From positions 3,552,001 through 3,616,000 of the forward strand of contig CBDIID010000003.1 of assembly GCA_965279515.1 (NCBI GenBank): a stretch of 64,000 nucleotides of DNA. The letters are read 5' to 3'. Under the pieces are notes generated by a model. It had not been told where the DNA came from. It ran no database searches and saw nothing but the letters and a program-made list of their open reading frames with translations. Within the stretch, counting starts at the first letter, position 1. The number at the start of each line of letters is the position of its first letter. The translations under genes were made by a program, and so were the position numbers. This DNA is from Turneriella sp. (GTDB taxonomy: Bacteria; Spirochaetota; Leptospiria; Turneriellales; Turneriellaceae). Shown here one piece after another: positions 27,865 to 48,468 of this stretch.

Positions 27865-28322
27865 TGCGGTTCTCCTGAAATGTTTGGGGTGACAGCGATT
27901 TTTTCCAGGCTGATCCTGATCTGTTCCGGAATACGCGTGGGCTTACTGGCTGCGCGATCGACAAAGACATGGGTAAAAAATCCGTCAGCCACCGCAATCT
28001 CTTCGCCTGCGCGAAAAATGGCGACGCCGTATTCGACAGACGACCCCGTGAGCCGGTTCACGCGCAATCCGCCTTCGAGTTTATCGGGGTAAGCGACGGG
28101 TGCGTGGTAGTTGCAACCTGAGGCGACGACGAAACCGGCGATCGTGTCGGAGTGAATTTTGAGCCCGGCCTGCTGTATCAGGTAAAGGTTCGCGACGCTG
28201 TCGAAGTAAGAATAATAGATCACATTGTTGACGTGCCCATAGATATCGTTGTCTGACCAGCGCGTGGTAACCGGCGCGAAGAAACGGTAATCGCCGCGTT
28301 GCGTGCGGCTTGGTTTTGCCAT
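27861..28322 (-). CDS. Acyl-CoA thioesterase (hot-dog, 4HBT family)
   Basis: RWSDNDIYGHVNNVIYYSYFD. Confidence 0.9.
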   Translation of the reverse strand: MAKPSRTQRGDYRFFAPVTTRWSDNDIYGHVNNVIYYSYFDSVANLYLIQQAGLKIHSDTIAGFVVASGCNYHAPVAYPDKLEGGLRVNRLTGSSVEYGVAIFRAGEEIAVADGFFTHVFVDRAASKPTRIPEQIRISLEKIAVTPNISGEPH

Positions 28323-28413
28323 GGGGGTAGGTGAGCGGGATGTTTATCCCGTCAAACGAAAAGGCTGCGTATGCGGATTGACCCGTGAAACGTTGCCGCG
28401 TGTCTGGCACGAT

Positions 28414-30576
28414 ATGTTGAACCTGATGTTCAACGCGCGCGGGCCACGCCCCCGACCCGCGCGGTTCCTTATTTTTTGCATACTGATCGCACTGGGCGCG
28501 CTATTTTCCTGTAAATCGTGGGGCAAATTCTGGCATATTTACACGCCGGGCGAAGCAAAACCTCTTTACAGCGGTTCCGCGCTGTGGAACGATTATATTG
28601 TCGCCGACGGTTCCGCGCTGACGGTGCGCGGTGTTTCAGCAAATGCTCCCAGCGGTATATCGACCCGGCTCAATGCATCGGGTACTGCATGCAACGCCGC
28701 GGCGACGGGTGGGTATGGTGTTTGCATCCATGCGGGCATGATGCGGCAATCCGTGATCAACGACAAAGAGGACTGCACGGGAATTTCCGCCGCCGACGCG
28801 CTGGGTGTTTTTATCTGGGTCTGCGACGCATCGGTGAAGCCGGTGCGGCTGGTATCTGTCGGCTTTAACGAAGGCAAGTATATGACAGACTTGATCGATT
28901 TTGATGCGGTGGCTTTCCGGCAAAATTCCGTTATCCTCAGTGCGGATGGAACGACTTATCAGGGACCATCGTCAGTGTGGTGGTCGAATCCCGTGAATAA
29001 TTTCGGCGCCACCCTCTATGGTTCCACTTCGGCTGTTGTTCTTGTCCAGTCGAATCCGAATAGCGCAGCTATTATTACTAACAACGCTGACAAAACTGCG
29101 CTCCTGGTGCGGCCTGGCGTCAAGATCACCACTACCTCGGGTTCGGGTGCGATCAACAACGCAGGTAGAAATTTCTCATGGTTTGAGGGTACTGTTGATT
29201 TGAACGGCATCGCCGGCAGCGTCATAGGGTTCGCGATCTCCAGCGGCAGGTTTGTTGTGGTTCAGAATTTTGCCGTCGTGAACTCTTCGGCAACCGGCAA
29301 CACAGGCTTTCAGGTAAACGGAGATAATTTGTATTACCGTGATGTAAAATATGCCAATGCGAACGCCATAAATATGAAATCCTTTGATCTTCTTGCTGGA
29401 AATTCGGGTAACCTGCTGCACGGTGTTATGGCCGCCAATGATGAGTATTCGGCTCAGATCAAGTCGACGAACAGCGTTATACTGAATCTGACCAGCGCTA
29501 ATAGCGGTTCCAGCGTTCAGGTGAACGTCGATTTTCAGGTGGGTAATGGTAACAATGTCATGTTCAATATGACCGCGGCAAACGGCAATGTGATAAATTC
29601 TATCGGACCGTTGCGCGTGTCTTCGGGAGCCAATAACACGCTTATGAATATCGGCGTGGCAAATTCTACGGATCGCGGTGTCGTTATGGCAGGCGGCACA
29701 GGAACCCAGATCATCAACGTCGCCGCTCACCGCGACCAGGCGGGCGGAGTCGATATGCTTTCTTCCGCCAGCACCTTCTCGTATTTTAGCGGCATTGTTA
29801 AAACAACGAATGGCGTGAGCTGCACAGGGGGCACTCCTGACGCCGGGCTTCCGAACGGAGGCGGCATTGCCTGCACACTGGTCAATAACTCTGATTTTAA
29901 TCTCACCAGTACGTCGGTGAATCCGGCAAATTCTTTCGTCGGCAAAGTTACCGCCGACGATTTGCAAAACACCTCGGACAGTAACGGCATCAGCACCTAT
30001 ACGATGGGTATGGATTGGATCCGTTTTAATAACCCTTTTCGGGCATACGGGAACGACGGCGGCACTTTTCCGATAGCGGCTAATCAGGGACGCTGCACAA
30101 CGGGAAGTTGCCGCATCTGGGATTGGTCGCTGCGGGCAGGCGATACTCAATACCGCAATGTCTTGCCTGTTCCGACAGGCAGTATGATCGCTGCGCATAA
30201 ATGGTCGGCCGCAACACAGATCAATTGTACGCAGCCCGGAGCGGTATGGATTGGTACGGGTACCTGCAACTATCCCCCTTTTCCAGGTAATGCGAGCACT
30301 TGCGCCACGTGGACTGGAGGAACAACCGCTACGGCTGCATGCCTAACAACATTTCTTCGCAACGCCTACGAAATCATCGGCGACGGCATCGGCAATGAGA
30401 ACGGCCTCTGCGAATCGAATGAAGCGTGTATCTATACGCCGAACATTGCCTCTTACCAGGGCCACGGTAACCTGACTTGTATTCGCGGGCCGGTTGAGTA
30501 CGGCTGTACATCCGCCTTTGTGGATGGCACAATCAGCGGTGTCGTACTTTACCAGTACGTGAACAACGGTTATTGA
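28414..30576 (+). CDS. Large surface lipoprotein with probable beta-helix core (paralog 1)
   Basis: Lipobox LFSC followed by KSWGKFW; Asn/Gly/Ser-rich repetitive core; Cys-rich termini; tandem paralog of 30579..32693. Confidence 0.75.
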   Translation: MLNLMFNARGPRPRPARFLIFCILIALGALFSCKSWGKFWHIYTPGEAKPLYSGSALWNDYIVADGSALTVRGVSANAPSGISTRLNASGTACNAAATGGYGVCIHAGMMRQSVINDKEDCTGISAADALGVFIWVCDASVKPVRLVSVGFNEGKYMTDLIDFDAVAFRQNSVILSADGTTYQGPSSVWWSNPVNNFGATLYGSTSAVVLVQSNPNSAAIITNNADKTALLVRPGVKITTTSGSGAINNAGRNFSWFEGTVDLNGIAGSVIGFAISSGRFVVVQNFAVVNSSATGNTGFQVNGDNLYYRDVKYANANAINMKSFDLLAGNSGNLLHGVMAANDEYSAQIKSTNSVILNLTSANSGSSVQVNVDFQVGNGNNVMFNMTAANGNVINSIGPLRVSSGANNTLMNIGVANSTDRGVVMAGGTGTQIINVAAHRDQAGGVDMLSSASTFSYFSGIVKTTNGVSCTGGTPDAGLPNGGGIACTLVNNSDFNLTSTSVNPANSFVGKVTADDLQNTSDSNGISTYTMGMDWIRFNNPFRAYGNDGGTFPIAANQGRCTTGSCRIWDWSLRAGDTQYRNVLPVPTGSMIAAHKWSAATQINCTQPGAVWIGTGTCNYPPFPGNASTCATWTGGTTATAACLTTFLRNAYEIIGDGIGNENGLCESNEACIYTPNIASYQGHGNLTCIRGPVEYGCTSAFVDGTISGVVLYQYVNNGY
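30337..30576 (+). repeat. Direct repeat copy 1 (copy 2 at 32454-32693): conserved 3' ends of the tandem lipoprotein genes
   Basis: Near-identical nucleotide blocks differing mostly at third codon positions. Confidence 0.85.
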
Positions 30577-30578
30577 GT

Positions 30579-32693
30579 ATGGCAGGAAAAAGCACGCGTA
30601 TCTTTTTGTGTACATTCCTTCTGGGGGCAGTCGTTTCATGCAAATCGTGGGGGAAGTTCTGGTACAACTACACGCCTGGTCAGGCTACAGCGCTCTATGC
30701 GGGGGCCGGTCTCTGGAATGATTACATTACCGCAGACGGTTCGGCGCTCACGGTGCGCGGGGTATCGCCGAATGCACCGAGCGGCACCTCGAATCGCCTC
30801 AATGCTTCGGGCACGACCTGCAATACCGCGGCGACCGGCGGATACGGGGTCTGTATCCATGCCGGTATGATGCGGCAGGCGGTCGTGAACGATAAGGAAG
30901 ATTGTTCGGGCATGACGGTGACCGACGCGTTGGGGGCTTTCATCTGGGTCTGCGATGCCAGCGTTAAGCCGGTGCGCGTTATTTCTGTCGGATTCAACGA
31001 GGGTAAGTATATGACCGACCTCGTCGATTTCGACGCGGTTGTTTTTCGTCCGAATTCGTTAAAGGTTAGCGTCGACGGAAGCGAATATGCGGGACCGTCA
31101 TCCGTTTGGTGGGCGAATCCCGTTACCAATCTTTCCACAACAACCTACGGGGCGGCTTCTGCGGTCGTGCTTGTGCAGACGAATCCCAACAGCGGTGCTA
31201 CGCTGACGCCTTCTGCCGATAAGATCGCCTTGCTCGTGAGGCCGGGTGTGAAAATTACTTATGCCGGCTCCGGCGCCGTGGTGAACAATTCGGCCAGGAA
31301 TTTTTCATGGTATGAGGGAACCATCGATAAGAACGGCTCCCTTGCCAGCGCGCTGGGTTTGGCGCTGACAAACGGCAGTTTTGTTGTGGTACAGAATTTT
31401 GGTATTGTGAATGCGTCGGCAACCGGCAATTCGGCATTCCAGTTTAATGCGAGAAATTCTTTTTTCCGCGACATCCGCTACGCCAACGGAGGCATCGCGG
31501 CGGAAAAATCTCTCGACTTTGCCGCGGGCGGGGACGCGAATCTGATCAGCGGGGTTTTTACTTCAAACGATACCACTCCCCTGTATTTGAATTCCTCGAA
31601 CAATGTCGTTCTGCAATTGACCATTGCGAACACGGGCGGCGTGTTCGACATCCAGGGGAGCGCGATCAGTAATTTCTTTTTGAACATGACGATGGCGAAT
31701 AATTCTTCCGGCGGTATCGGCGCGCTGCGATTCAATATAAACGGCGCCGTCCATAATACCTGGATGAACCTGGGCGCCGGTAGCTCTCCTTCGCCCGCCA
31801 TGCATTTGGGTACCGGCGTGCCGGTGAATATGCACTCGCAATTTATCAACCTCGCGGCATATGTCAACAGCGCGACGCTCATCAACTCGTCCGCGAGCAG
31901 CTACACTTATATTGGCGGAATAGTCTCCTTCGGCAACTCATCTTCTCCGTTATGCGGTTCGGCCTCGAATGTCGGGTTCTCGGGAACATGCACGGCTCAG
32001 AATTCTTCGGATTTTACCCTGGTTTCCTCGGCGCTGGACCCGACGAATTCTTATGTCGGAAAAATTCTCACCGACGATTCCGCGAATGCTTCCGATGCGG
32101 GCGCGGCCGCGACCAATATCGCGGCGATTAGCGACTGGCTGAAATTCGCCAACGGCCTCAGGGGTTATGGTCTCGACGCGGCAGTCTTTCCTGCGGCGGG
32201 CAATCAAGGCCGGTGCACCGCCGCCAATTGCCGCATCTGGGATTGGTCGCTGAAGGCAACGGACTCACAGTATCGCAATTTATTGCCCGTGCCGACAGGC
32301 AACATGACTGCCGGGCATAAATGGAATGCCGCTACCCAACCGCAGTGCACGCAGCCCGGCGCTCAATGGATTGCCGCGAGTACCTGCGACAAGCCGCCGT
32401 TTCCCGGCAACTCGACAACCTGCAGCGCCGCCGGCGGGACTTTAACCGCTTCCGCATGCCTAACGACCTTTTTGCGTAACGCCTATGAAATCATCGGCGA
32501 CGGTATCGGTAATGAAAACGGCCTCTGCGAATCGAATGAGGCGTGTATTTATACTCCGAACATTGCTTCATACCAGGGCCACGGCAATCTGACCTGTATT
32601 CGCGGGCCGGCCGAGTACGGCTGTGCATCCGCCTTTGTGGATGGCACGGTTAGCGGTGTCGTACTTTATCAGTACACGACGAACGGTTACTGA
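30579..32693 (+). CDS. Large surface lipoprotein with probable beta-helix core (paralog 2)
   Basis: Lipobox VVSC followed by KSWGKFW; same architecture; C-terminal FLRNAYEIIGDGIGNENGLCESNEACIYTPNIASYQGHG is identical to paralog 1. Confidence 0.75.
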   Translation: MAGKSTRIFLCTFLLGAVVSCKSWGKFWYNYTPGQATALYAGAGLWNDYITADGSALTVRGVSPNAPSGTSNRLNASGTTCNTAATGGYGVCIHAGMMRQAVVNDKEDCSGMTVTDALGAFIWVCDASVKPVRVISVGFNEGKYMTDLVDFDAVVFRPNSLKVSVDGSEYAGPSSVWWANPVTNLSTTTYGAASAVVLVQTNPNSGATLTPSADKIALLVRPGVKITYAGSGAVVNNSARNFSWYEGTIDKNGSLASALGLALTNGSFVVVQNFGIVNASATGNSAFQFNARNSFFRDIRYANGGIAAEKSLDFAAGGDANLISGVFTSNDTTPLYLNSSNNVVLQLTIANTGGVFDIQGSAISNFFLNMTMANNSSGGIGALRFNINGAVHNTWMNLGAGSSPSPAMHLGTGVPVNMHSQFINLAAYVNSATLINSSASSYTYIGGIVSFGNSSSPLCGSASNVGFSGTCTAQNSSDFTLVSSALDPTNSYVGKILTDDSANASDAGAAATNIAAISDWLKFANGLRGYGLDAAVFPAAGNQGRCTAANCRIWDWSLKATDSQYRNLLPVPTGNMTAGHKWNAATQPQCTQPGAQWIAASTCDKPPFPGNSTTCSAAGGTLTASACLTTFLRNAYEIIGDGIGNENGLCESNEACIYTPNIASYQGHGNLTCIRGPAEYGCASAFVDGTVSGVVLYQYTTNGY

Positions 32694-32700
32694 TTTCCCG

Positions 32701-33264
32701 TTAAAAAGCAAACCGTACTGTCGACCCGAGCCCCAGCCAGACTGAGACATTGAAGCCGCTGGTTTCAGAAAGATAATAACCGCCGAACTGTACCTGCGAG
32801 ATCAGCTTCAGCGCAAACCAATCGTAATGGATGCGCAACGCGGTAGATAAGGTAAAATAAGGAGAATAAAAAGAACCTCTGAACTGGTAATGGACACTGT
32901 CGTCTTTATCGATAATCGCGAGTGCGATGACAAGTGCCGTGAAAAAATCCATACCGAGTGTCGCTTCGGCCGAGATGTGCTCCAGAAACGGAAAGATCAC
33001 ACCGATGTGAAAATCGGGACGGTACTCCGAAACACTCTTCCAGGTGAGCGAACTTTGGCTGGTGCCGAAATAGACGTATTGCGAAGGGTAATAGTTGATC
33101 AGTAATCCGGTGGAAAGCGCCGGCTCCCAGGGCACAGTGGCCCACATGCGCTCGAAGCCGACTTCCAGCGAGGTTTCAGGAGGATGACCCTTTGAAAAAA
33201 TGACCTGCGGTATGCAAAACATTAGCGCAAAGACGCAGGCGGCGCGGCATGTTGGCAAATTCAC
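32701..33264 (-). CDS. Small outer-membrane beta-barrel-like protein (paralog A)
   Basis: Signal peptide; SLEVGFER, GLLINYYPS, RPDFHIGV; ends GLGSTVRFAF. Confidence 0.65.
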   Translation of the reverse strand: MNLPTCRAACVFALMFCIPQVIFSKGHPPETSLEVGFERMWATVPWEPALSTGLLINYYPSQYVYFGTSQSSLTWKSVSEYRPDFHIGVIFPFLEHISAEATLGMDFFTALVIALAIIDKDDSVHYQFRGSFYSPYFTLSTALRIHYDWFALKLISQVQFGGYYLSETSGFNVSVWLGLGSTVRFAF

Positions 33265-33836
33265 AATTTGAACCGGTACGTTGCTCCAACACCGAGCCAG
33301 GCCGAAGACCCAAGGCTGTCTCTGATGGCAACCGGGTAGCCGCCGTATTGCATCTGGGCAATGAGTTTCAGTGCGAGGGCATCCCAGTGCCAGCGCAGCG
33401 CTGTAGCAAAGTTCAGGTAACCGTCGTATTTGGCCGAACTGCTGCTGTAACTGCTACTGCTATTGTTTTGTACGCAATTTTTGTTACAAATGACGGCGAG
33501 AGCGAGAATTCCTGTCGTGACGAGGTCAATACCCATGGTAAATTCGGCAAAGAGTTGTTCGAGCAGGGGGATCGTCACGCCGATATGCACGTCGGGCCGG
33601 TAAGCAAAATCAGATCTGTTGTAACCGGGGCCGGTCGAGACGATATTCTGATTCGTGCCGATGTGGAATGCCCGTGAGGGATAATAGTTGAGGAGTAAGC
33701 CAGTGCCCGCAGTATCGGGCCTTGGGCTTGTCGGCGTGTAACGCTCGTAGCCGACCTCGAGCGATTTGCGGGGATAATATTCGTCGGCAAAGATGGTGCT
33801 TGTGAGAACGAGAGCCGCTATGACGCCGGGTTTCAT
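33261..33836 (-). CDS. Small outer-membrane beta-barrel-like protein (paralog B)
   Basis: MKPGVIAALV signal; SLEVGYER, GLLLNYYPS, RPDVHIGV; ends GVGATYRFKL. Confidence 0.65.
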   Translation of the reverse strand: MKPGVIAALVLTSTIFADEYYPRKSLEVGYERYTPTSPRPDTAGTGLLLNYYPSRAFHIGTNQNIVSTGPGYNRSDFAYRPDVHIGVTIPLLEQLFAEFTMGIDLVTTGILALAVICNKNCVQNNSSSSYSSSSAKYDGYLNFATALRWHWDALALKLIAQMQYGGYPVAIRDSLGSSAWLGVGATYRFKL

Positions 33837-33837
33837 G

Positions 33838-34923
33838 CTAATCCTCCAGTAATATTTTCTCTTTCGGCTTAGTCCAGGGCCGCACCGCGTAGGTTCGCTT
33901 GTCAATCTGAAATGCCCCGGCAGCACTGTTTTCATAACGCAGCAACAAGCGGTTTTCACCTTTCTCTTCGACGATTTCGCCGGAATATTTTGCCGCGTCG
34001 GTGCCGAAGCCCTGTGTGTGGATTTCCCCGTCGAAGACAGTCGTGCGGGCAAGGTAGATGATCGTATCAAGCCTTTCGGGAATATTCACCGTCATTGTCG
34101 CAGTGAGGTGGGCCATGCCGCGCTCATCCATTTCGCGCGTCAGCGCTTCGGCGGTATTGAGCATACCGCGCACCGCTACGATGGCAGCGGCCACCGCGGC
34201 GGTGATGTCGACACCTTTCGCTGTTTTTACCGGGTTTTTCACGAGATAAGCATAACCTTCTTCGCTGAGATCTGAGCGGATGCGGCGGTGGACGGCGTTC
34301 TTTTCGTTGTAATGTGCGAGGCAGCCGACGATCGCGCCACAAGCCGCGCGCGGGTCACGCCACTTGCTCTCACGCGTCTTGCCGATCGCCACACCGCCTT
34401 CTTCAAGGCGACCGACATGCGTCTTCAGGTCGAAATTGCAGAGCGCGTACGAAGCCGGATTTCCCAGGTAAATGCGTTCGCGCAAAAAATCGTCGATGTG
34501 GTGTGCCCAGGTAACATGCGCGAACGTCGCGCCGTCGTCGGTGCCGCCGCCCGTGGGGGCGAAGTCTTCGACTTTATATTCGCCGATTTCAGAGAGCGTA
34601 GCGAAGCGCGCCGCTACGGTCTGAATGTATGCAGTCGCAGCCTCGCCCTGGTGAATGCGGTCGCCGCAGTTGGTGTGCGCGAGCGTGGTGATGACGGTGG
34701 GCAGGCTGAAGTCGGCGCCGCATGCGGCGATGTCTGAAGTCGTGTCGATGCCGGCCAGCTGCAACTCGTCGCGCACCAGCTGCATACCCTTAACAAGGCT
34801 GTAGCGATCGCTGACGATTTCTTCAAAATAAATTTCGAAGGCCGGTTTCTCGAGGCCGAATTCGGCGCCGAGTTTCCAGAACGCTTCGATGCGTTTTTTT
34901 CCGGGCGCGGCTTCGAATTTCAT
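33838..34923 (-). CDS. Hypothetical protein, LCIB-like (beta/theta carbonic anhydrase-like) candidate
   Basis: Cys/His/Cys pattern NCGDR...THVG...G...R...AACGAI. Confidence 0.55.
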   Translation of the reverse strand: MKFEAAPGKKRIEAFWKLGAEFGLEKPAFEIYFEEIVSDRYSLVKGMQLVRDELQLAGIDTTSDIAACGADFSLPTVITTLAHTNCGDRIHQGEAATAYIQTVAARFATLSEIGEYKVEDFAPTGGGTDDGATFAHVTWAHHIDDFLRERIYLGNPASYALCNFDLKTHVGRLEEGGVAIGKTRESKWRDPRAACGAIVGCLAHYNEKNAVHRRIRSDLSEEGYAYLVKNPVKTAKGVDITAAVAAAIVAVRGMLNTAEALTREMDERGMAHLTATMTVNIPERLDTIIYLARTTVFDGEIHTQGFGTDAAKYSGEIVEEKGENRLLLRYENSAAGAFQIDKRTYAVRPWTKPKEKILLED

Positions 34924-36187: not shown

Positions 36188-36625
36188 ATGAAATTTTGGG
36201 CTCTCGGGGCGGCACTTTTTTATGCCAGTGTTGTCGCCGCGGCAGACATCACTGCTTACCATCAGGAACATTTCGGTGAAATCACCTACAATAAATCCGG
36301 CGTCGCGCATATCGTAACGAAAGATGGCTGGGTTGCAATCAATAAGAAGAAACAGGTATTATACAAACCCTTCATTTACGATAACGGCCCCGACTATGTT
36401 CAGGAAGGCCTGCTGCGTTATGTCGAAAACGGAAAAATCGGCTTTGTCGACGAGGCCGGAAAAAAAGTGATCACTGCAGAGTATGATTTTGTCTCTCCCT
36501 TTGAAGGTGGTGTAGCACGGTTCTGTAACGGCTGTCGTGCCGTTGCAGTCGGCGAGCATCACCAGATGGACGAAAAAACCGGAACATGGGGACGAATCAA
36601 CAAACTAGGCAAAAAGCTGCCCTGA
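36188..36625 (+). CDS. WG (KWG) repeat-containing secreted protein
   Basis: Signal peptide; DNGPDY..EGL.R...NGKIGFVD..G..VI...YDF..PF..G.A. Confidence 0.85.
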   Translation: MKFWALGAALFYASVVAAADITAYHQEHFGEITYNKSGVAHIVTKDGWVAINKKKQVLYKPFIYDNGPDYVQEGLLRYVENGKIGFVDEAGKKVITAEYDFVSPFEGGVARFCNGCRAVAVGEHHQMDEKTGTWGRINKLGKKLP

Positions 36626-36633
36626 TATCTGTC

Positions 36634-37113
36634 GTGCTTTCCGACACGCAATTTAATGAGGCCTATCAGAAATACAGCCGTTCGACCTATGTCCGCGTCT
36701 ACCGCATCGTCAATAACGAGGCGGTAGCCGAAGAGATTCTGCAGGAGACATTCCTGCGATTTCTGGAAAAAGCCGATTCCGGGCGCCCTGGCGATTTCCG
36801 CACGTTCTTAATCCATATCAGCCATAACCTTGCGGTTGACTATATAAAGAAGAATGCGCGGGTGAAAAATGTCGAGGATTTCCCCGCAGAGGCTGACCGG
36901 CGCGATTTTGCCGGCGAGGCTGAGGCCCGGGTCATGCGTGAAGATATTCTTGCCCGCCTCGCCGCCGTCGATGAGAGATATCTCAGTATTTTTCTTTTGC
37001 GCGTGGACTATGAGATGACTTATGACGAGATTTCAACAACCCTGGGGATACCCAAACGGACGATGATGCGGCATGTCGAGAACCTCAAGAAGCTGATCCA
37101 GGACTTTTTATAA
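36634..37113 (+). CDS. ECF RNA polymerase sigma factor
   Basis: AEEILQETFLRF, FLIHISHNLAVDY, MTYDEIS..LGIPKRT. Start uncertain. Confidence 0.9.
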   Translation: MLSDTQFNEAYQKYSRSTYVRVYRIVNNEAVAEEILQETFLRFLEKADSGRPGDFRTFLIHISHNLAVDYIKKNARVKNVEDFPAEADRRDFAGEAEARVMREDILARLAAVDERYLSIFLLRVDYEMTYDEISTTLGIPKRTMMRHVENLKKLIQDFL

Positions 37114-37120
37114 GGAAAAA

Positions 37121-37147
37121 TGGCACCATAAATGCACACTTTGCGTA
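37121..37147 (+). promoter_or_regulatory. ECF-type promoter candidate TGGCAC-N17-CGTA
   Basis: Between the sigma stop and the FecR start; one of four copies with identical spacing. Confidence 0.65.
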
Positions 37148-37162
37148 TATTACTCCGATCGG

Positions 37163-38104
37163 ATGGATGAACGCGATCTAAAAGCAGCCGCTGTCGAAAA
37201 CCTTCTGGGTGAGAAGGCCGGCCCCCCTACGGCCAATCCCTTCGCCGCAAAGCTGGGCGCCGCGTTTGCTAAAAAAGAACCCGGGCGCCTGCCTGACTTT
37301 GAAAAGATCCGTAGAAACGTACTCGCCCGCCGTGATGCGGCGGAGGCCGATCGTCGCCGTTTCCGCCGTATCTGGGTGCCTGCCGCGGCGGCCGCAACCG
37401 TACTGATCATCGCCGGCTCGTTCCTGATACGCCCATATCTGAGTCAGCCCACCCCCGCGGTAACCGCGCAGGCGATAGAGATACCCAAGGGCAAGGCAGA
37501 AAAACTTCGCCTGGAAGACAGCCTCGCCATGCATGTACGCTCTGCGGGCGGTCTGACCCGTACCCTCAATGGCAACGCATTGACGCTTAAGGCTGCGACG
37601 ATGTCGGCACTTTTTGATTTTGAACCGAACGACCGCCTGCGTGCGGTAAAAATTGAAACGCCCCGCGCCACGTTTTCGGTAATTGGCACACGTTTTATTA
37701 TCCAGGCAGACGGCGACACGGCTTTTCTCGCCGTTGAATCGGGTGCGGTGCGTGTGAACGCCGCGGGTAAGGAATATGTGGTGCGTGGCGGCGAGTTCTG
37801 GTCAGAAACGAAAGCTGTACAAAAGACGGGCAAGACCGGGGAAAATGGGCGCAAGCTGTTTCCGGCATTTATTACGGAACGCGATCCTGCCGGGCTTGTG
37901 CGGGCCATCGCCGCAAAAACAGAAACCGCACCGGCGCCGCGCGGTGGTAAACGTGTTGTGGTTACGCTGAAATCGGGCACGGTAGTGAGTGGCATTCTGA
38001 TCTCGGAATCAGCAGAGGGTGTCGAAATGCGCGCCGCTGCTGCCGGTAACCAGGTTCTGCGTTTTACCAAGGACGAGATCGCGGGAATACAATACCCCAA
38101 ATAA
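37163..38104 (+). CDS. FecR-domain anti-sigma factor
   Basis: Single TM after RRRFRR; FecR motif VKIETPRATFSVIGTRF...LAVESGAVRV; small C-terminal beta domain. Confidence 0.85.
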   Translation: MDERDLKAAAVENLLGEKAGPPTANPFAAKLGAAFAKKEPGRLPDFEKIRRNVLARRDAAEADRRRFRRIWVPAAAAATVLIIAGSFLIRPYLSQPTPAVTAQAIEIPKGKAEKLRLEDSLAMHVRSAGGLTRTLNGNALTLKAATMSALFDFEPNDRLRAVKIETPRATFSVIGTRFIIQADGDTAFLAVESGAVRVNAAGKEYVVRGGEFWSETKAVQKTGKTGENGRKLFPAFITERDPAGLVRAIAAKTETAPAPRGGKRVVVTLKSGTVVSGILISESAEGVEMRAAAAGNQVLRFTKDEIAGIQYPK

Positions 38105-38155
38105 AGGGTTATTGACGAGGCCTTCCGGGTGTCTTAACGTCCGCTTAGGCGGCCT

Positions 38156-38863
38156 GTGCGATCGATCATAGCTGTAGTGATATTTTCTCTGGGTTCGGCT
38201 TATGCGCTGGAAACCGGCGGCCGGTATGATTTTTTTTGCGACCATGGGCAAGATATCATGAATGCGGAGCTCGTCGGCGAAGATGAGACGCGTTATTTTG
38301 TTAAACTTTCCGCATCAGTAAACCGCCTGGCGATTGAAAAGAAAAATGTTTTGCGGACAGACCTCAAGGCGCGCCCGCCTGCGGCTGCGGAACCTGTGAA
38401 GGCCCGCGCCTTTTCCGTGGCGCTCATCGGTGGCATGGGTTTTGCGACGGGGCGGCTCGCCGAGTTCTCTTCGGTAACTCCCGCAGTCACACTTTACGGT
38501 GCCTACCGGCTAAAAGAGCGCTGGGATATCATCGCGCGCGGGGATTTCATGCGGTTTGCGAATGGCGATGCATCGCTGCGGCCGGTGCTTTTTTCCGCGG
38601 GAATGAGTTTTCATCTGCCCTGGCGTTTCAGGGAAATCCGTTTTTCTTCAGGGCTCAGCGCGGGTGCGGCCTGGCTTTATGCAGTGGCGGATGGACTTAA
38701 AGAGCAAAGCCTGACACCCGCAGCGATTATCTGGTTTGCCGCCGAGCGTAGCTTTACGGATCGTATCTCGGCCACGACCTTCATCGATGTTTCTTACATC
38801 TACGACCGGCAAACTTTCGTGCTTATTCCAGCAATCCGCCTGGGTGTCAGTTACCAGCTATGA
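38156..38863 (+). CDS. Outer-membrane beta-barrel protein with small N-terminal periplasmic domain
   Basis: Signal peptide; Pro/Ala linker; about 8 amphipathic strands ending RLGVSYQL. Confidence 0.65.
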   Translation: MRSIIAVVIFSLGSAYALETGGRYDFFCDHGQDIMNAELVGEDETRYFVKLSASVNRLAIEKKNVLRTDLKARPPAAAEPVKARAFSVALIGGMGFATGRLAEFSSVTPAVTLYGAYRLKERWDIIARGDFMRFANGDASLRPVLFSAGMSFHLPWRFREIRFSSGLSAGAAWLYAVADGLKEQSLTPAAIIWFAAERSFTDRISATTFIDVSYIYDRQTFVLIPAIRLGVSYQL

Positions 38864-40233
38864 AGACCGGCCTGCGTTTGTTTTCGCTTTCGCTGGCGGT
38901 ATTTTCCTGGAGCTGCGACGGCCTCGCCGTCACGCGTTTTCTCGATAGTGCGGCGAGTGTCCGTATTTCCGTGACGGTGTCGGGCCTATTGGGTTCGGGC
39001 CTCGTACTCTCATCAGGATCAGAGTCACTCGCGGTAGCGGCCGACAATACCTATACGTTTGCGGTTCGTTTCCGCAAGAAACACTCCTACGCCATTCAGG
39101 TGGTATCGCACCCCGTGAACCCGAACCAGTATTGCTCGGTGGCCGGGGGCCGCGGTGTTGCTGGTGACGGTGATCTGACGCTGAGTGTGAGCTGTGTACC
39201 TGGTTCGGCAGCCGGTCCGATGGTGGCGGGAACGATCATTCGTCCCTTGAATATTTCAGGGAATGCCGATCTGGTTCTTGGCGAGGTTTTTGCGGGCAGC
39301 ACTGGCGCGAGCGCGTCTGTCGACGGCGTGGGTTCAGCTGCACGTTTCTCTTTGCCGACGCATATGGTCACCGACGGTATCTATATTTACCTGCAGGAGT
39401 CGAACCCTGCTGGCACGCTGCGCCGTATTGCGATTGCCACGCGCGAGGTGACGACCCTCGGCGACAGCGGCGGCAGCGATGGGATAACCACCGATGGCCT
39501 CTACCTCTACTTTGCAAACTACAACAATTGCACGGTGCGCAAAACAAGCATTGCCAATTTTAATATCACTGTGCTTGCGGGCGCCGATAATGTCTGTGCT
39601 TTTAACGACTCGCCGACGGGATCTGCTGCCCGCTTCAATAATCCGCTGGCGATTACGCATGACGGCACCTGGCTCTATGTCGCCGATTATTCCAACAGGC
39701 GCATCCGCCGCGTTGATCCGGTGACGGGTGCAACCACAACCTTCGCGGGTACCGGCGCGGCGACGAGCACCAATGGGCCGGCGGCGACTGCGACTTTTCT
39801 GCTGCCGCACGGTTTGACGTATCATGCGGGTAAACTTTATGTCACCGAAAGCGATCCCACGGCGCAGTGGGTGCGCACGATCGATCTGAGTGCAGCACCT
39901 TACAATGTCACAACCTTTTCGGGTACCGGAACCTGGGGTTGCGTCGCCGGGGCAGCCGGTGTGGCCCAGTTTAAGAAACTGCGCAACCTCATCAGTGACG
40001 GCACGTATCTCTACGCTACGGACAAAGAGTGTTATAATATCTGGCGGATGGATCTCAGTAACGGTTCGGCCACCGCGCTTTCAGGCTGGGAGACCAGAAC
40101 GACGACGGCCATCGGCACGGGCGGGGGTCTGGCAGGTACGGCAGCGTTCCGTGAGCCGATGGGCATCACCGCAGACGGCACCTACCTCTATGTGACAGAC
40201 GCTTCAGATTATATTCTGCGCCGTATCGAATAA
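38860..40233 (+). CDS. Lipoprotein with Ig-like domain and NHL-like beta-propeller
   Basis: Lipobox FSWSC; VSGLLGSGLVL...C.V..G.G; repeated ARF..P..IT.DG..LYV.D units. Confidence 0.8.
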   Translation: MKTGLRLFSLSLAVFSWSCDGLAVTRFLDSAASVRISVTVSGLLGSGLVLSSGSESLAVAADNTYTFAVRFRKKHSYAIQVVSHPVNPNQYCSVAGGRGVAGDGDLTLSVSCVPGSAAGPMVAGTIIRPLNISGNADLVLGEVFAGSTGASASVDGVGSAARFSLPTHMVTDGIYIYLQESNPAGTLRRIAIATREVTTLGDSGGSDGITTDGLYLYFANYNNCTVRKTSIANFNITVLAGADNVCAFNDSPTGSAARFNNPLAITHDGTWLYVADYSNRRIRRVDPVTGATTTFAGTGAATSTNGPAATATFLLPHGLTYHAGKLYVTESDPTAQWVRTIDLSAAPYNVTTFSGTGTWGCVAGAAGVAQFKKLRNLISDGTYLYATDKECYNIWRMDLSNGSATALSGWETRTTTAIGTGGGLAGTAAFREPMGITADGTYLYVTDASDYILRRIE

Positions 40234-40234
40234 T

Positions 40235-40261
40235 TGGCATCGCTGCGCACCTGTTTTCGTA
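40235..40261 (+). promoter_or_regulatory. ECF-type promoter candidate TGGCAT-N17-CGTA
   Basis: 13 nt upstream of ATG 40275. Confidence 0.65.
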
Positions 40262-40274
40262 CAGACCTGTAGCG

Positions 40275-42725
40275 ATGAAATTGTTTGTCTTTGTCCCCCT
40301 GGTTTCCCTCATTGTTTCTCTTGCAATATCCTGCAAAAGTAATGTGGATATTCATATCGGAGAAAAAGCGGCTGCGCCGGTAAGTAACGGGCCAGGCCCG
40401 GCAACGACACCTCAGGCCCAGGGTTCTACCCCGGTGAATCTGGTCAGCGACCCCGGTTTTGAGGCTGGCGTCTCAGGTTTTGAAGCGGGTTCCAATGCGG
40501 TTACGGTGACAAGGGCTGCGGCCGCGCTGAGTGGCAGCCATAGCCTTCGGGGAACTATCGGAAATTACGGCGACAGCATCTGGTGGAGCCGTGACATGCG
40601 GGGCCGCGCCACTGCGTATGCAGTCTCGGGCACTTTGCGATCCGATCTGGCCTCAGCCTCATATATCCGGTACTGCGCGTTCGTCGTCTATGACGACGAT
40701 AGCAGCACCAGCAGTTGCGCGCGCGTTTCGGCGTTCGTGGGTGATAAAGGTATTCTCAATGCCTCGCTGCCGCTCGAAGATAAGGTCTTACGCAGCGTAC
40801 GCATCCGCATTGAGCTTGAAGGTGGCCAGCCCGTCGAATTCCGCGTCGACGACGTCTCTGCGGTACTCACCGGTTTTGTACCCGCGCCGCCCGCACCCGG
40901 TGGCGGCAATGGGGGCGGGGGTAACAACGGTGGTCCCGGAAATAATGCAGACCCAAACGATGTGCCGCCGCCCGCAGGCACGCCGTATCCTGGGTACACC
41001 TACACACCGCCGACGGTGCGCCCTTATATTCACATGAATGATTTTAATACGGCGGGAAATACATCCCCGGCATTTATCCGCCTTAAAGACCAGGTCGACA
41101 GTGCTTCGGCGATCACCGCGGCGCAGCCTGCCGGCGTGACGTACGACCAGCTCGTCACGGCGCTCAATGGGCAACACTATGGCTACTCGTGCACAGATTC
41201 TGTGGTCATGTACCGCCTCACGAACAATGCGGCTTATATTCAGCAGGCTATCCGCATGGTTGATCTTTTTGTACAGAGTGAGATGGCGCTCATCCATGCT
41301 GGTGAGCGGCCGCATATTGCCGGTGATTCATATCTCGAAGTCGGCTACTACATGGAGCAATTGGCGCTTGCCTACGATTACGGTTATGATTTGTTAACTC
41401 CGGCGCAGCGCACCGCATGGGAGACCTATGCGAACCAAACGCTGCAGAATCTCTGGTACCCCGCGGCGGCCACTTGGGGCGGGGTTTCTTATCCCTGGAG
41501 CGGTTGGTCGATGAACGATCCTGGTAATAATTATTTTTATAGTTTTCTGAAAGCGACGCAACTCTGGGGCTGGGCGTCGCAGAACAACGCATGGATTACA
41601 TTTTTGCAACAGCGCAAGTATCCCTTGCTTGTTCCCTTCTTCAGTGTGTTGACGGGTGGCGGCACACGCGAAGGCACGGGTTACGGCACCGCGATCGGCA
41701 GTATGTTCGAAAACTACCGCTACTGGCGCTCGTCGACGGGCGAAGACCTCTCGGCGATTTCATCTCACTCCCGTGACACGATAGATTACTGGATCCACGC
41801 CACGGTACCGACGCTCGACTACTATGCGGCGATTGGCGATCAGGCGCGCTCTGCCGACCCACGCATGTTTGACTACCAACGGCGGTTGATGCTTGAAGCA
41901 GTGGCGCTGAACCCGGGTACGGCACAATCGGCGCGTGGGGCGTGGTGGCTCGCCCGTGCGCGCCTGAGCGACGGCGGTTCAGGCTCGGTGATCAATCGCA
42001 TGCGTTATAACTATAATTTCCGTTTTGATCTTCTCGCGCCGGCGACACCCGAGGCCCAACCGACAGCACTTGCCTATGATGCCTCGGGTGCCGGCGCCTT
42101 TTTCGCCCGCAGCGACTGGACGACGTCGGCCAGTTGGCTTGCCGCCGTTGTAGGTCCCCTCGACCAATCACATGCGCACCAGGAACAGGGTGGGTTTACT
42201 TTCTATAAGGGCGGATGGCTCACCGTGACGTCGAACATCCACTCACGCAGCGGCATCAACCAGGACGTGCCGGTGCATAATGTCATACGCTTCGCCGCTG
42301 GCGGCTCGACCATTCCGCAAAATTATTCTACTTCGACAAAGACCATTAGCGATGCGGGAAATACCGTCACGCTCCAGGAAAATCTTTCACCCGCGTATGC
42401 CAACCGCGCGGCCGATGTCTCGCTGTGGACGCGCCAGTTGGTTTATAACCGGGGAGCACACTCCCTCGCCGTGCACGATGTTTGCACCGTCGCTGCTGGT
42501 GTGTCAGCGACCTGGCAGCTGCATACACCGACGCAACCGATTGTGCAGGGCGATGGCTCGATCATTGCGGGCAATTTGCGGATTACTCCTGTCTTGCCTG
42601 CGGCACCGGTAGTGACCATCGTCAATATGAACGCGCTCAATAACCAGTTTAATAGCGGTTACCGCATTGAATTTTCTGCCGGGCAGACCTGCGAGTTTCG
42701 GGTGAATCTCAATGCCTTAAACTAA
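40275..42725 (+). CDS. Lipoprotein with CBM-like domain and heparinase II/III-like (polysaccharide lyase-like) module
   Basis: Lipobox LAISC; NLVSDPGFEAG CBM4/9-like start; Pro/Gly linker; PGNNY, EGTGYG, RSDW...SHAHQEQGGF. Confidence 0.65.
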   Translation: MKLFVFVPLVSLIVSLAISCKSNVDIHIGEKAAAPVSNGPGPATTPQAQGSTPVNLVSDPGFEAGVSGFEAGSNAVTVTRAAAALSGSHSLRGTIGNYGDSIWWSRDMRGRATAYAVSGTLRSDLASASYIRYCAFVVYDDDSSTSSCARVSAFVGDKGILNASLPLEDKVLRSVRIRIELEGGQPVEFRVDDVSAVLTGFVPAPPAPGGGNGGGGNNGGPGNNADPNDVPPPAGTPYPGYTYTPPTVRPYIHMNDFNTAGNTSPAFIRLKDQVDSASAITAAQPAGVTYDQLVTALNGQHYGYSCTDSVVMYRLTNNAAYIQQAIRMVDLFVQSEMALIHAGERPHIAGDSYLEVGYYMEQLALAYDYGYDLLTPAQRTAWETYANQTLQNLWYPAAATWGGVSYPWSGWSMNDPGNNYFYSFLKATQLWGWASQNNAWITFLQQRKYPLLVPFFSVLTGGGTREGTGYGTAIGSMFENYRYWRSSTGEDLSAISSHSRDTIDYWIHATVPTLDYYAAIGDQARSADPRMFDYQRRLMLEAVALNPGTAQSARGAWWLARARLSDGGSGSVINRMRYNYNFRFDLLAPATPEAQPTALAYDASGAGAFFARSDWTTSASWLAAVVGPLDQSHAHQEQGGFTFYKGGWLTVTSNIHSRSGINQDVPVHNVIRFAAGGSTIPQNYSTSTKTISDAGNTVTLQENLSPAYANRAADVSLWTRQLVYNRGAHSLAVHDVCTVAAGVSATWQLHTPTQPIVQGDGSIIAGNLRITPVLPAAPVVTIVNMNALNNQFNSGYRIEFSAGQTCEFRVNLNALN

Positions 42726-43002: not shown

Positions 43003-43029
43003 TGGCACTGCATTGCAGCGAATTTCGTA
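43003..43029 (+). promoter_or_regulatory. ECF-type promoter candidate TGGCAC-N17-CGTA
   Basis: 8 nt upstream of GTG 43038. Confidence 0.65.
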
Positions 43030-43037
43030 CAGGAATT

Positions 43038-44165
43038 GTGCGCAGGGGTCTCTATGCGTTGACGGGGCTGATTCTGGCTGCTGCGGGGCCGGTATCGGCA
43101 GCCAAAAAAATGCTCATTTTGGATTTTCGCAGTATTGACCATGATCCGAATTTTCAGTATCTGGAAATATCATTAACCGAAAGTGTCCGCAAATACCTGC
43201 ATGAAAAGTATGAAATCGTAGAGCCAGACGGTCAAGACATGGTGCGTCAAATGAACGATGGCGCCTTCCTGTTTACCGAAGATTTTCACAATAAAAACGT
43301 CGCCTTGCAGCTAGGGCTGCTTACGGGGCAGGATATCGTCCTAAGCGGCGGTTTCCGGCAGAGAATGTCGGTGCATGGCAGTACGGTTATTTCCCTTGAG
43401 GTCTTCATCATGGATGTAGAAAAGCGTACGCTTGTGAAAAGGATCATTGGTGAGGTTAAGGTCGACAGCGGTCTCTTTGCCTCAATCGACAAATTCTCTG
43501 AACGGATCGTGCAGGAAGCGAAAGGTGTTCTGCCAAACAAGGGTGAATACGACTTCGACGCTTTTACGCCGGTGCGGATGACCCAATTCACTGTCCTCGG
43601 CGGATATAACCTGAATGCGCTGAGTTCTGCCCTGCGTAAAAACCCTGTGCTCGGAACACGGTCGTCAGTCGTCCCCGCCGATCTCGGTGGCTTTATGGCT
43701 TCGCTGGAAATCAGGCGCGATCGTTTTTTGAAGATAAACCGTCTCATCGGTTACGGTCGCGCCGATGCGCAGATTATCAATGCAGAATTCAGTGCTGCAA
43801 ACGAGAGTACCGGTCCATTAGCACGGGGCTTCGGCGCTACCGCAGAGCTGGGTATCGGTTATCAGGTTTTTCGTTTTAAAAGATTTTTTATCCAGGCTCT
43901 CGCGGGTGGCGGTTTTAACTATACCAACTTTAAGCTGGATTATTCGCAGATGAAAAATCCGCCGATTCAGTCTGAAAGCCGGGAAATAACGATTCAGTCT
44001 TCAGGATATTTTTTCGGACCGGTAGCGTCGACCGGACTTCGCCTGGGGTTTCAGATTAACCGGTCCGTCAGCTGGGAACTCGGCGCCTCGTACCAAATGA
44101 CGTTTCTGAGCGGTTCTGTTTCGGGGAATGTTTTTACTACAATGGGGATAGGTTTAAGATTATGA
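43038..44165 (+). CDS. TolB-N/CsgG-like domain plus outer-membrane beta-barrel (paralog of 15013..16065)
   Basis: KMLILDF.SI..DPNFQYLE.S, A..LG.L..QDIV..GGF, VDS.LF; ends GIGLRL. Confidence 0.6.
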   Translation: MRRGLYALTGLILAAAGPVSAAKKMLILDFRSIDHDPNFQYLEISLTESVRKYLHEKYEIVEPDGQDMVRQMNDGAFLFTEDFHNKNVALQLGLLTGQDIVLSGGFRQRMSVHGSTVISLEVFIMDVEKRTLVKRIIGEVKVDSGLFASIDKFSERIVQEAKGVLPNKGEYDFDAFTPVRMTQFTVLGGYNLNALSSALRKNPVLGTRSSVVPADLGGFMASLEIRRDRFLKINRLIGYGRADAQIINAEFSAANESTGPLARGFGATAELGIGYQVFRFKRFFIQALAGGGFNYTNFKLDYSQMKNPPIQSESREITIQSSGYFFGPVASTGLRLGFQINRSVSWELGASYQMTFLSGSVSGNVFTTMGIGLRL

Positions 44166-48084: not shown

Positions 48085-48111
48085 TGGCATCCGGCATCGT
48101 CGCATTTCGTA
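48085..48111 (+). promoter_or_regulatory. ECF-type promoter candidate TGGCAT-N17-CGTA
   Basis: 12 nt upstream of ATG 48124. Confidence 0.65.
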
Positions 48112-48123
48112 TGAGACGTACGC

Positions 48124-48468
48124 ATGGATGAGAAAAAATATGACCTATCGTTTACCCTGGGGTATCATGCCGATGTCGCCAACCTGCAATTGATGGGGGC
48201 GCTTTCGGTGCATACCGGTTACCTGCTCAAAAACACGGCTTCGGGTTTGCTGGCCGAAAAGATTAGCGGCCTGGTGCTCCACGTGTCCGATGTCACGCAC
48301 ATGGACACCGGCGGCTTAATCGCCCTGATGACGGTTTTCAGGAATTGCGGCAAAAAGAACGTGTTCTTTGCAATCCATGGGGAGAACCCCATCGTGGAAA
48401 AAATACTGGAGAACAGCGGATTATCAAAGCTGTTTACCCGACAGCCCGCTTCTTTGCAGACAAGCTAG
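48124..48468 (+). CDS. STAS domain protein (anti-sigma antagonist-like)
   Basis: L.G.L...V.HMDTGGL..L...V..ILE.SGL..LF. Confidence 0.75.
   Translation: MDEKKYDLSFTLGYHADVANLQLMGALSVHTGYLLKNTASGLLAEKISGLVLHVSDVTHMDTGGLIALMTVFRNCGKKNVFFAIHGENPIVEKILENSGLSKLFTRQPASLQTS

Follow-up and report, generated by a model that had tools for sequence, protein, structure and literature searches.

How could an anti-sigma factor of FecR-like type receive a signal from the cell surface when the gene next to it encodes a small outer-membrane barrel instead of a TonB-dependent transducer? The question is raised by a four-gene cassette in a 64,000-nucleotide stretch of Turneriella sp. (assembly GCA_965279515.1, contig CBDIID010000003.1, positions 3,552,001 to 3,616,000; hereafter the window), which comes from a genome of 4.9 Mb that is 99.99% complete. 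Four open reading frames (ORFs), all on the plus strand, encode an extracytoplasmic function (ECF) sigma factor, an anti-sigma factor resembling FecR, a barrel protein and a lipoprotein (Table 1), in the order and at the positions given in a preliminary description of the locus. That description proposed that two small domains, one ending the anti-sigma factor and one heading the barrel protein, pair in the periplasm and relay a signal from the lipoprotein and barrel. The common fold, the predicted binding, the missing STN domain and the conserved gene pairing all speak for this proposal, whereas its use of the lipoprotein as sensor and its need for a barrel found no support; it also overlooked PP2C-linked TPR proteins that use the same domain pair, and a promoter between sigma and fecR. 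We favour, with moderate confidence, the explanation that the cassette is a TonB-independent trans-envelope signalling system, in which binding controls a proteolytic switch that is subject to negative feedback.

The cassette and its two small domains

The sigma factor matches TIGR02937 with 67 bits, and its orthologues in four other genomes (51-80% identity) align over residues 2-159, in agreement with the GTG at 36634 as the most likely start. It adjoins, as in canonical systems, a single-pass anti-sigma factor with a FecR domain; the hydrophobic membrane segment begins near residue 70 and the FecR domain spans residues 108-197 (24.1 bits against a Pfam cut-off of 24). Within this domain G175-T176 is invariant; in FoxR, self-cleavage takes place at the GT motif (PMC7186176). 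The C terminus carries a 55-residue Sm-like domain where FecR_C or STN would sit. FecR_C was found in none of the 11 aligned anti-sigma factors (0/11) and nowhere in the genome, and the sole STN match in the genome, in a 50-aa frame, fell below the cut-off, which supports the TonB independence proposed in the preliminary description.

The third protein combines a signal peptide with eight antiparallel strands in its predicted model, as expected of an OmpA-like barrel. The model (predicted local distance difference test, pLDDT, 91.8) consists of a five-stranded N-terminal domain (residues 23-72) and an eight-stranded barrel (86-234), for which the closest structures are OmpA, NspA and Legionella porin III (Z 19.8-17.4). 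Pfam and NCBIfam searches placed the window barrel in no family, and most of the clusters returned by the ESM Atlas, by features only, had no name, while one was OMP_b-brl. Judging from the topology of the modelled barrel, its Sm-like domain would lie in the periplasm.

The sequence pattern noticed earlier in the two small domains goes beyond chance. HHalign aligned the FecR C-terminal and barrel N-terminal profiles over 49 columns with a probability of 62%, an E-value of 7.5e-5 and a score of 24.6, compared with at most 14.8 in 100 column shuffles. Modelled separately, both domains form a five-stranded bent antiparallel sheet that superposes on Hfq (Z 7-8), including chain 2qtx (barrel domain, Z 7.9, root-mean-square deviation 1.7 Å, 56 residues; FecR domain, Z 7.0, 1.6 Å, 48 residues, with Hfq at Z 7.0-7.3), consistent with the Sm/SH3-like fold first suggested for them. 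Such Z values are of middling size, and those below 8 may reflect a common arrangement; most of the top 50 rows were Sm, LSm or Hfq proteins, and the BirA C-terminal and SH3-like domains tie with Hfq within 1 Z unit. Foldseek gave no match for the FecR domain at E <=0.001, and the fold assignment rests on TM-scores (0.72-0.77 against Hfq chains) and VIA-align. The first Foldseek row was 2k57, a small Pseudomonas lipoprotein that we take to be a DUF903 member. "Sm/Hfq-like" is used here as a label for the predicted shape and carries no claim of RNA binding; the FecR-domain model has no counterpart of the N-terminal helix of Hfq/LSm RNA chaperones. Among sequence families, NF047433 matches the FecR domain weakly (E 0.003, 17 bits against a cut-off of 43) and a paralogous barrel at E 4e-7, and gives no match to the window barrel domain, which is too diverged. 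FecR-type and Leptospira partner domains connect by profile at 95%; an HHalign value of 97.6% between the FecR and Leptospira anti-sigma domains was discarded as evidence because the two sets share rows.

Prediction of the complex between the FecR domain and the barrel domain gave a score of 0.63, against 0.02 for the best of three controls. In a benchmark that is rough, as the alignments were our own, the score mark was attained by 116 of 157 solved pairs and 2 of 215 mismatched pairs. Contact agreement between runs was at least 92% and the partner pLDDT at least 82. The two Sm-like domains are thus predicted to bind each other, as the preliminary description had proposed. The modelled heterodimer is approximately two-fold symmetric and is formed through the beta1-beta2 hairpins, with FecR 269-278 and barrel 28-38 at its centre; on the barrel side it comprises residues 26, 28-38, 50-55, 58-61 and 64-65. 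Conserved positions in the interface are F26, G31, Q32 and A37 of the barrel protein and L269, G272, S276 and G277 of FecR. Hfq rings assemble through the beta4-beta5 edge. The predicted interface differs from that edge, which makes the model less likely to be a mere recall of the ring.

Table 1. Coordinates of the cassette, the promoter motif copies and related loci (window positions unless a contig or locus handle is given)
Feature	Coordinates	Strand	Remarks
ECF sigma factor, 159 aa	36634..37113	+	GTG start; Pfam Sigma70_r2 and r4_2 above cut-off
Predicted ECF-type promoter, TGGCAC-N17-CGTATA	37121..37149	+	ahead of fecR-barrel-lipoprotein; 7/7 close cassettes
FecR-like anti-sigma factor, 313 aa	37163..38104	+	cytoplasmic N terminus, one membrane segment, FecR domain, linker, C-terminal Sm-like domain
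C-terminal Sm/Hfq-like domain of anti-sigma factor, residues 259-313	37937..38101	+	model pLDDT 83, five strands
Outer-membrane protein, 235 aa	38156..38863	+	signal peptide, Sm-like domain, short linker, 8-stranded OmpA-like barrel
N-terminal Sm/Hfq-like domain of barrel, residues 18-72	38207..38371	+	Z 7.9 to Hfq-like 2qtx
Lipoprotein, 457 aa	38860..40233	+	Cys19, N-terminal beta module, NHL-like propeller repeats
Second motif copy	40235..40261	+	14 nt ahead of 816-aa lipoprotein gene (40275-42725)
Third motif copy	43003..43029	+	9 nt ahead of 375-aa outer-membrane protein gene (43038-44165)
Fourth motif copy	48085..48111	+	13 nt ahead of 114-aa STAS-like gene (48124-48468)
Operon of HAMP-PP2C phosphatase, membrane-anchored TPR protein and Sm-domain barrel	G000:C3 1717473-1721223, 2158475-2163788, 3410844-3415333, 3479033-3484488 (L002-L005)		
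Ig-repeat proteins headed by Sm-like domain	L057:2041-3723, L058:502-4071, L059:6010-9636		

Recurrence of the domain pair among relatives

In the genome itself, each of the three full-length paralogues of the barrel is preceded by the gene of a TPR membrane protein that ends in an Sm-like domain, after a proline-rich stalk, and that is coupled to a HAMP-PP2C phosphatase gene. A uvrB-linked copy of this operon occurs in most of the examined genomes of the genus. Behind two other sigma-FecR pairs lie genes for outer-membrane proteins that have 2-3 copies of the domain (counted by eye), and a profile built from C-terminal domains of this genome only retrieved one of the N-terminal domains (E 1e-4). 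A paralogous barrel at G000:C3 1319990-1320976 (L001:3991-4977) has three apparent small domains; its C terminus is less barrel-like than that of L071:5303-6313, suggesting a frameshift or truncation. By eye, the C termini of five sigma-adjacent proteins (G000:C3 1453178, 1671449, 1820273, 3258684 and 3519432) resemble a diverged small domain, and their neighbours include barrels in which the domain was not detected.

A search of the order with the barrel alignment gave 55 matches in 20 of 34 genomes. Wide flanks were fetched for 44 of them, after exclusion of the window and of 10 matches that were weak or at a contig edge, plus one metagenome locus (a metagenome scan with the FecR alignment returned 1), and 43 rows were scored. 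Among proteins with the N-terminal domain, 29 of 31 have, at most two genes upstream on the same strand, a protein that ends in the domain; the two exceptions are weak domain matches only. Barrels that lack the N-terminal domain have such a neighbour in 1 of 12 cases, the single one being itself a weak match to the domain. The gene pairing put forward earlier is conserved. Script labels divide the 29 partners into 6 FecR-type and 23 TPR-type proteins. A Fisher p-value for this table and a mirror-tree correlation (r 0.77) were both discarded, since they are inflated by kinship and by operon co-inheritance.

At three loci the N-terminal domain heads immunoglobulin (Ig) repeats in proteins of 560-1208 aa, once with a terminal barrel and twice without, again behind a TPR protein bearing the C-terminal domain; the repeats may act as periplasmic spacers. 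As the domain heads such proteins with and without a barrel, it tracks the partner and not the anchor. Some cassettes (L036 and L037) unite PP2C, TPR protein, sigma, FecR, STAS and barrel genes. The domain pair is thus a reusable module.

The Leptospirales were surveyed at 40 loci, picked for diversity among 150 listed matches to NF047528 (137 further matches were unlisted); two loci dropped out, one cut by a contig end and one with no detected domain. At 24 of the 40, an anti-sigma factor adjacent to a sigma gene ends in the domain, and for 21 of these 24 a protein with the N-terminal domain is encoded at most three genes away, downstream or divergently (adjacency at L111 was assigned by hand); the C-terminal profile used here had been built from 20 of the 24. 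Independently of our own profiles, NF047433 matches 16 of 20 candidate partners, 4 above cut-off. In these loci the domain-bearing neighbour is usually not an eight-stranded barrel: for most partners a barrel was rejected (probability 0.13 against the barrel profile, with DUF5683 leading at 0.88), and they are mostly DUF5683-like. SrpB/C-family "SigX-regulated" lipoproteins are present in two loci. In 14 loci, FecR proteins that end in the domain have no sigma gene beside them and mostly carry a signal peptide, with a partner nearby in 4; these proteins could compete with anti-sigma factors for partners. Examples of signal-peptide FecR-Sm proteins with no adjacent sigma are found at G000:C3 750745 and 3537529 and in L117-L136, and a link to LipL45 is hinted at solely by one anti-sigma factor that matches an NCBIfam model in part. 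Across the phylum, NF047433 occurs in 91 of 201 sampled genomes, and each of the 23 from Leptospirales has 3-23 matches.

The lipoprotein gene overlaps the barrel stop codon by 4 nt, and its product has a hydrophobic leader followed by Cys19 and five repeats of the ITxDGxYLY type. Of the earlier label "NHL-propeller lipoprotein", the lipoprotein and the repeats stand; the NHL match reaches 15.3 bits against a Pfam cut-off of 20 (E 0.021), so that, on its sequence, the protein is "NHL-like" at most. The gene behind the barrel is NHL-like in the window and, among relatives, at 5 of 7 FecR-type loci; elsewhere the place is taken by other lipoproteins or by none. Its two close paralogues lie apart from such cassettes, and one of them bears the promoter motif described below. 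With a variable or absent gene in this place and close paralogues outside cassettes, the proposal that the lipoprotein is the upstream sensor finds no support; it looks like variable cargo and output, with a sensing role possible. Nor is there support for the barrel being essential: the Sm domain also occurs on Ig-repeat proteins with or without a barrel, and its carriers in Leptospirales are mostly DUF5683-like proteins.

A predicted promoter motif shared with surface-protein genes

A motif of the form TGGCA(C/T)-N17-(C/A)GTA lies 42-46 nt ahead of the fecR start in all seven close cassettes (Table 1), and it was not seen between sigma and fecR in three more distant ones. When the matrix was built from the other sites, the window site still ranked first genome-wide; 8 genomic sites scored at least 20, compared with 0-3 when six wrong spacer sets were used. 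The window holds 4 matches (chance mean 0.88; 2 of 100 shuffles reached 4), all on the plus strand and 9-16 nt ahead of genes, namely those of fecR, a lipoprotein, an outer-membrane protein and a STAS-like protein. The outer-membrane protein gene is followed by a DUF1554 lipoprotein gene, and its equivalent in G023 is also preceded by the motif. The 114-aa window protein is STAS-like by eye; related genes behind the motif match Pfam STAS. No motif match was found upstream of the sigma gene itself, and sigma autoregulation was rejected.

With a looser pattern, the five genomes that have a sigma orthologue held 39 sites (backward control 22), and nine congeners that have none held 13 (backward control 23). 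Restricted to TGGCA(C/T), the counts were 28 sites, 23 of them non-training, in the five genomes (about 19 Mb) and 1 in the nine (about 33 Mb). From this co-occurrence we infer that the motif probably belongs to the window sigma factor. Of the 23 non-training sites, 14 precede exported-looking proteins (by eye), 3 precede STAS genes and 1 another ORF; the remaining 5 have no convincing gene or face a contig end. One STAS gene and two secreted proteins, of about 90 and of 476 aa, recur behind the motif across genomes. The occurrence of a conserved ECF-type promoter ahead of fecR, surface-protein and STAS genes, mainly in sigma-bearing genomes, is a new observation. The STAS genes may link the sigma factor to partner-switching circuits.

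The recurring genes are each found in three genomes. STAS or STAS-like genes lie in the window, at G000:C3 3719144, and in L147 and L148. The secreted protein of 87-92 aa is encoded at G000:C3 2188785-2189093, L142:407-667 (no Pfam match) and L040:4080-4355, and one of 476-480 aa, behind the motif or a weaker copy, at L138:2436-3863 (no Pfam match), L041:440-1879 and G000:C3 4010728. Around the cassette, the gene of a WG-repeat secreted protein (window 36188-36625) ends 8 nt upstream of the sigma start; it is present in two close relatives (L041 and L076) and absent in others. Tandem paralogous lipoproteins of 757 and 706 aa (window 28303-32693) share cysteine-rich, near-identical C termini and have no Pfam match. 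On the minus strand, window 32701-33860 encodes two small tandem outer-membrane-like proteins that end in Phe/Leu, for which no informative family was found. Scans for sigma-70 promoters and terminators gave nothing that bears on the readings discussed here, and no RNA holder was among the entries listed.

Competing explanations and known systems

In the proteolytic switch that we favour, the C-terminal Sm-like domain of the anti-sigma factor would dock on the N-terminal Sm-like domain of the barrel in the periplasm, and this contact would set the cleavage of the anti-sigma factor and hence the release of sigma. By analogy with PupR/PupB, binding may stabilise the periplasmic part of the anti-sigma factor, and a lost or altered contact would then expose it to Prc and RseP, both of which are encoded in the genome. 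Freed sigma would likely transcribe fecR, the barrel and the lipoprotein together with other surface-protein and STAS genes. Since the sigma gene precedes the motif whereas fecR and the barrel follow it, active sigma would boost its own brake and the docking partner, which amounts to negative feedback. As to the cue, we favour the barrel and its surface cargo, either their state or their amount, over a transported nutrient, since no plug domain is seen in the modelled barrel. Through the same domain pair, outer-envelope proteins are likely coupled to the PP2C-linked TPR membrane proteins.

Several points weigh against the proteolytic switch. The route by which an eight-stranded barrel would relay an outside cue has no explanation. 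The complex controls were unrelated proteins, with non-cognate Sm pairs and homodimers outside the comparison, and cousins of true partners also score as passing (10 of 12 colicin pairs); the model contains the two small domains alone, and PupR binding requires both subdomains (PMC7186176). In HHalign the TPR-type domain aligns weakly with that of the barrel (probability 1.6%). The 43 scored rows are interdependent, about 13 being one orthologous uvrB-linked locus, and the profiles were partly built from the same rows. In Leptospirales, 10 of the 14 sigma-less FecR proteins have no partner within three genes, and NF047433 copies generally outnumber anti-sigma matches, so that many copies have no adjacent regulator.

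An alternative that we consider unlikely is that the domains bind as a static tether or assembly aid, positioning outer-envelope proteins and passing no signal, with the anti-sigma factor controlled otherwise. The abundance of the domain on Leptospira envelope proteins, its place at the head of Ig-repeat spacers and at the end of signal-peptide FecR proteins with no adjacent sigma, and the long proline-rich stalk of the TPR partners would all suit a tether. However, the adjacent partners are regulators, either an anti-sigma factor or a membrane protein that is linked with a HAMP-PP2C phosphatase, and the domain sits where an STN signalling subdomain would.

Next in rank, and likewise improbable in our view, is a scheme in which barrel and lipoprotein are sigma outputs only, their adjacency reflects co-regulation, and the Sm-like domains act solo, as homo-oligomers or with another partner or ligand. 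One predicted promoter serves fecR, barrel and lipoprotein, other barrels and lipoproteins bear the same motif, and several domain-ending anti-sigma factors have no recognised neighbouring partner; the symmetric interface fits homodimers, and periplasmic DUF903 lipoproteins, of related fold, form rings (10.64898/2026.05.26.727983). Against this scheme, domain-less barrels rarely follow a domain-bearing regulator, the heterodimer model passed, and a last-strand proline in the barrel domain goes with the type of partner (20 of 22 TPR-type against 1 of 7 FecR-type), a pattern that co-inheritance would also explain.

A distant TonB-dependent receptor serving the anti-sigma factor, as in canonical cell-surface signalling, is very improbable: although the genome has 10 TonB plug-domain matches and one of the 40 Leptospirales loci (L097) encodes a TonB receptor at a distance of two genes from the anti-sigma factor, no STN over cut-off and no FecR_C was found in the genome, the small-domain profiles picked out none of the 10 receptors, L097 has an Sm-like partner too, and Leptospira TonB receptors are reported to have no extension (PMC12155086, PMC13118517).

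Beyond this locus, it is tempting to speculate that Sm/Hfq-like pairs constitute a plug-and-socket code of the Leptospira lineage, wiring interchangeable anchors to interchangeable outputs independently of TonB, with LIC12758-type proteins as input to SigX-type systems and sigma-less FecR-Sm lipoproteins as competing plugs; we hold this broader idea only tentatively. The proposed anchors are small barrels, Ig-repeat and DUF5683-like proteins, and the proposed outputs ECF anti-sigma factors and PP2C/STAS partner switches. If the reading favoured for the cassette is correct, an RNA-chaperone fold would have been reused as a periplasmic protein coupler common to sigma/anti-sigma and phosphatase systems. 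For receptor-less anti-sigma factors, the cassette offers a candidate input, a contact surface at residue level and a promoter readout, and with two 55-residue domains the question becomes testable.

The cassette resembles cell-surface signalling yet misses two of its defining features, an STN/FecR_C ending and an STN-bearing TonB transducer. FecI/FecR/FecA and PupI/PupR/PupB (PMC7186176, PMC11658791) likewise combine an ECF sigma factor, a single-pass GT-motif FecR anti-sigma factor and an adjacent partner gene, and there too the last subdomain of the anti-sigma factor and the first domain of its outer-membrane partner share one fold; in PupR, the STN subdomain shares homology with the signalling domain of PupB that it binds, and binding stabilises the anti-sigma factor (PMC7186176). 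Here, in contrast, that fold is Sm/Hfq-like and not STN, the partner is a plug-less eight-stranded barrel and not a TonB-dependent transducer, and the pair also serves PP2C-linked TPR proteins.

Closer in lineage are SigX/Rsx of Leptospira (LIMLP_03680/03685; PMC7708080) and LIC12757/LIC12756 (ECF229; PMC12155086, PMC13118517), which have FecR-like anti-sigma factors and no known transducer; three papers note that the FecR-like anti-sigma factors of Leptospira lack a TonB receptor capable of signalling to them (PMC12155086, PMC13118517, PMC12655853). The Leptospira sigma/anti-sigma pairs and their missing receptor are thus already published. Leptospira NF047528 anti-sigma factors end in the same small domain and adjoin NF047433 proteins, but their partner is usually DUF5683-like and often divergently transcribed, whereas the window partner is a barrel; the window FecR has no match to NF047528 at E 0.05, and a paralogue reaches E 3e-7 and 30 bits against a cut-off of 200 bits. 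The SigX consensus TG(A/G)CAC-N15/16-TCGTT resembles the window motif, and SigX targets are lipoproteins; SigX is autoregulated, whereas the window motif lies downstream of the sigma gene, and SigX overproduction abolishes hamster virulence (PMC7708080). LIC12758, with a Lepto_7 N-terminal domain, was flagged as STRING-linked in a 2026 paper that gives no mechanism (PMC13118517), and for the ECF242 group no partner is proposed (PMC7826278). In their accessible portions, the Leptospira papers name neither the Sm fold, nor a matching anti-sigma domain, nor direct contact, and the open-access literature searched, subscription papers and supplements being outside its scope, holds no description of the domain pair or its PP2C-linked form.

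Small exported beta domains are also known as NF047433 (the N-terminal domain of LA_0442/LA_0875, described without function) and as DUF903/YgdR, which differ in being stand-alone lipoproteins. TonB-independent signalling through a small barrel and a lipoprotein to an inner-membrane regulator has precedents in RcsF-OmpA-IgaA and NlpE-OmpA-CpxA. In those systems it is the lipoprotein that contacts the regulator, with a phosphorelay as output, whereas here it is the barrel's own domain that is predicted to make the contact.

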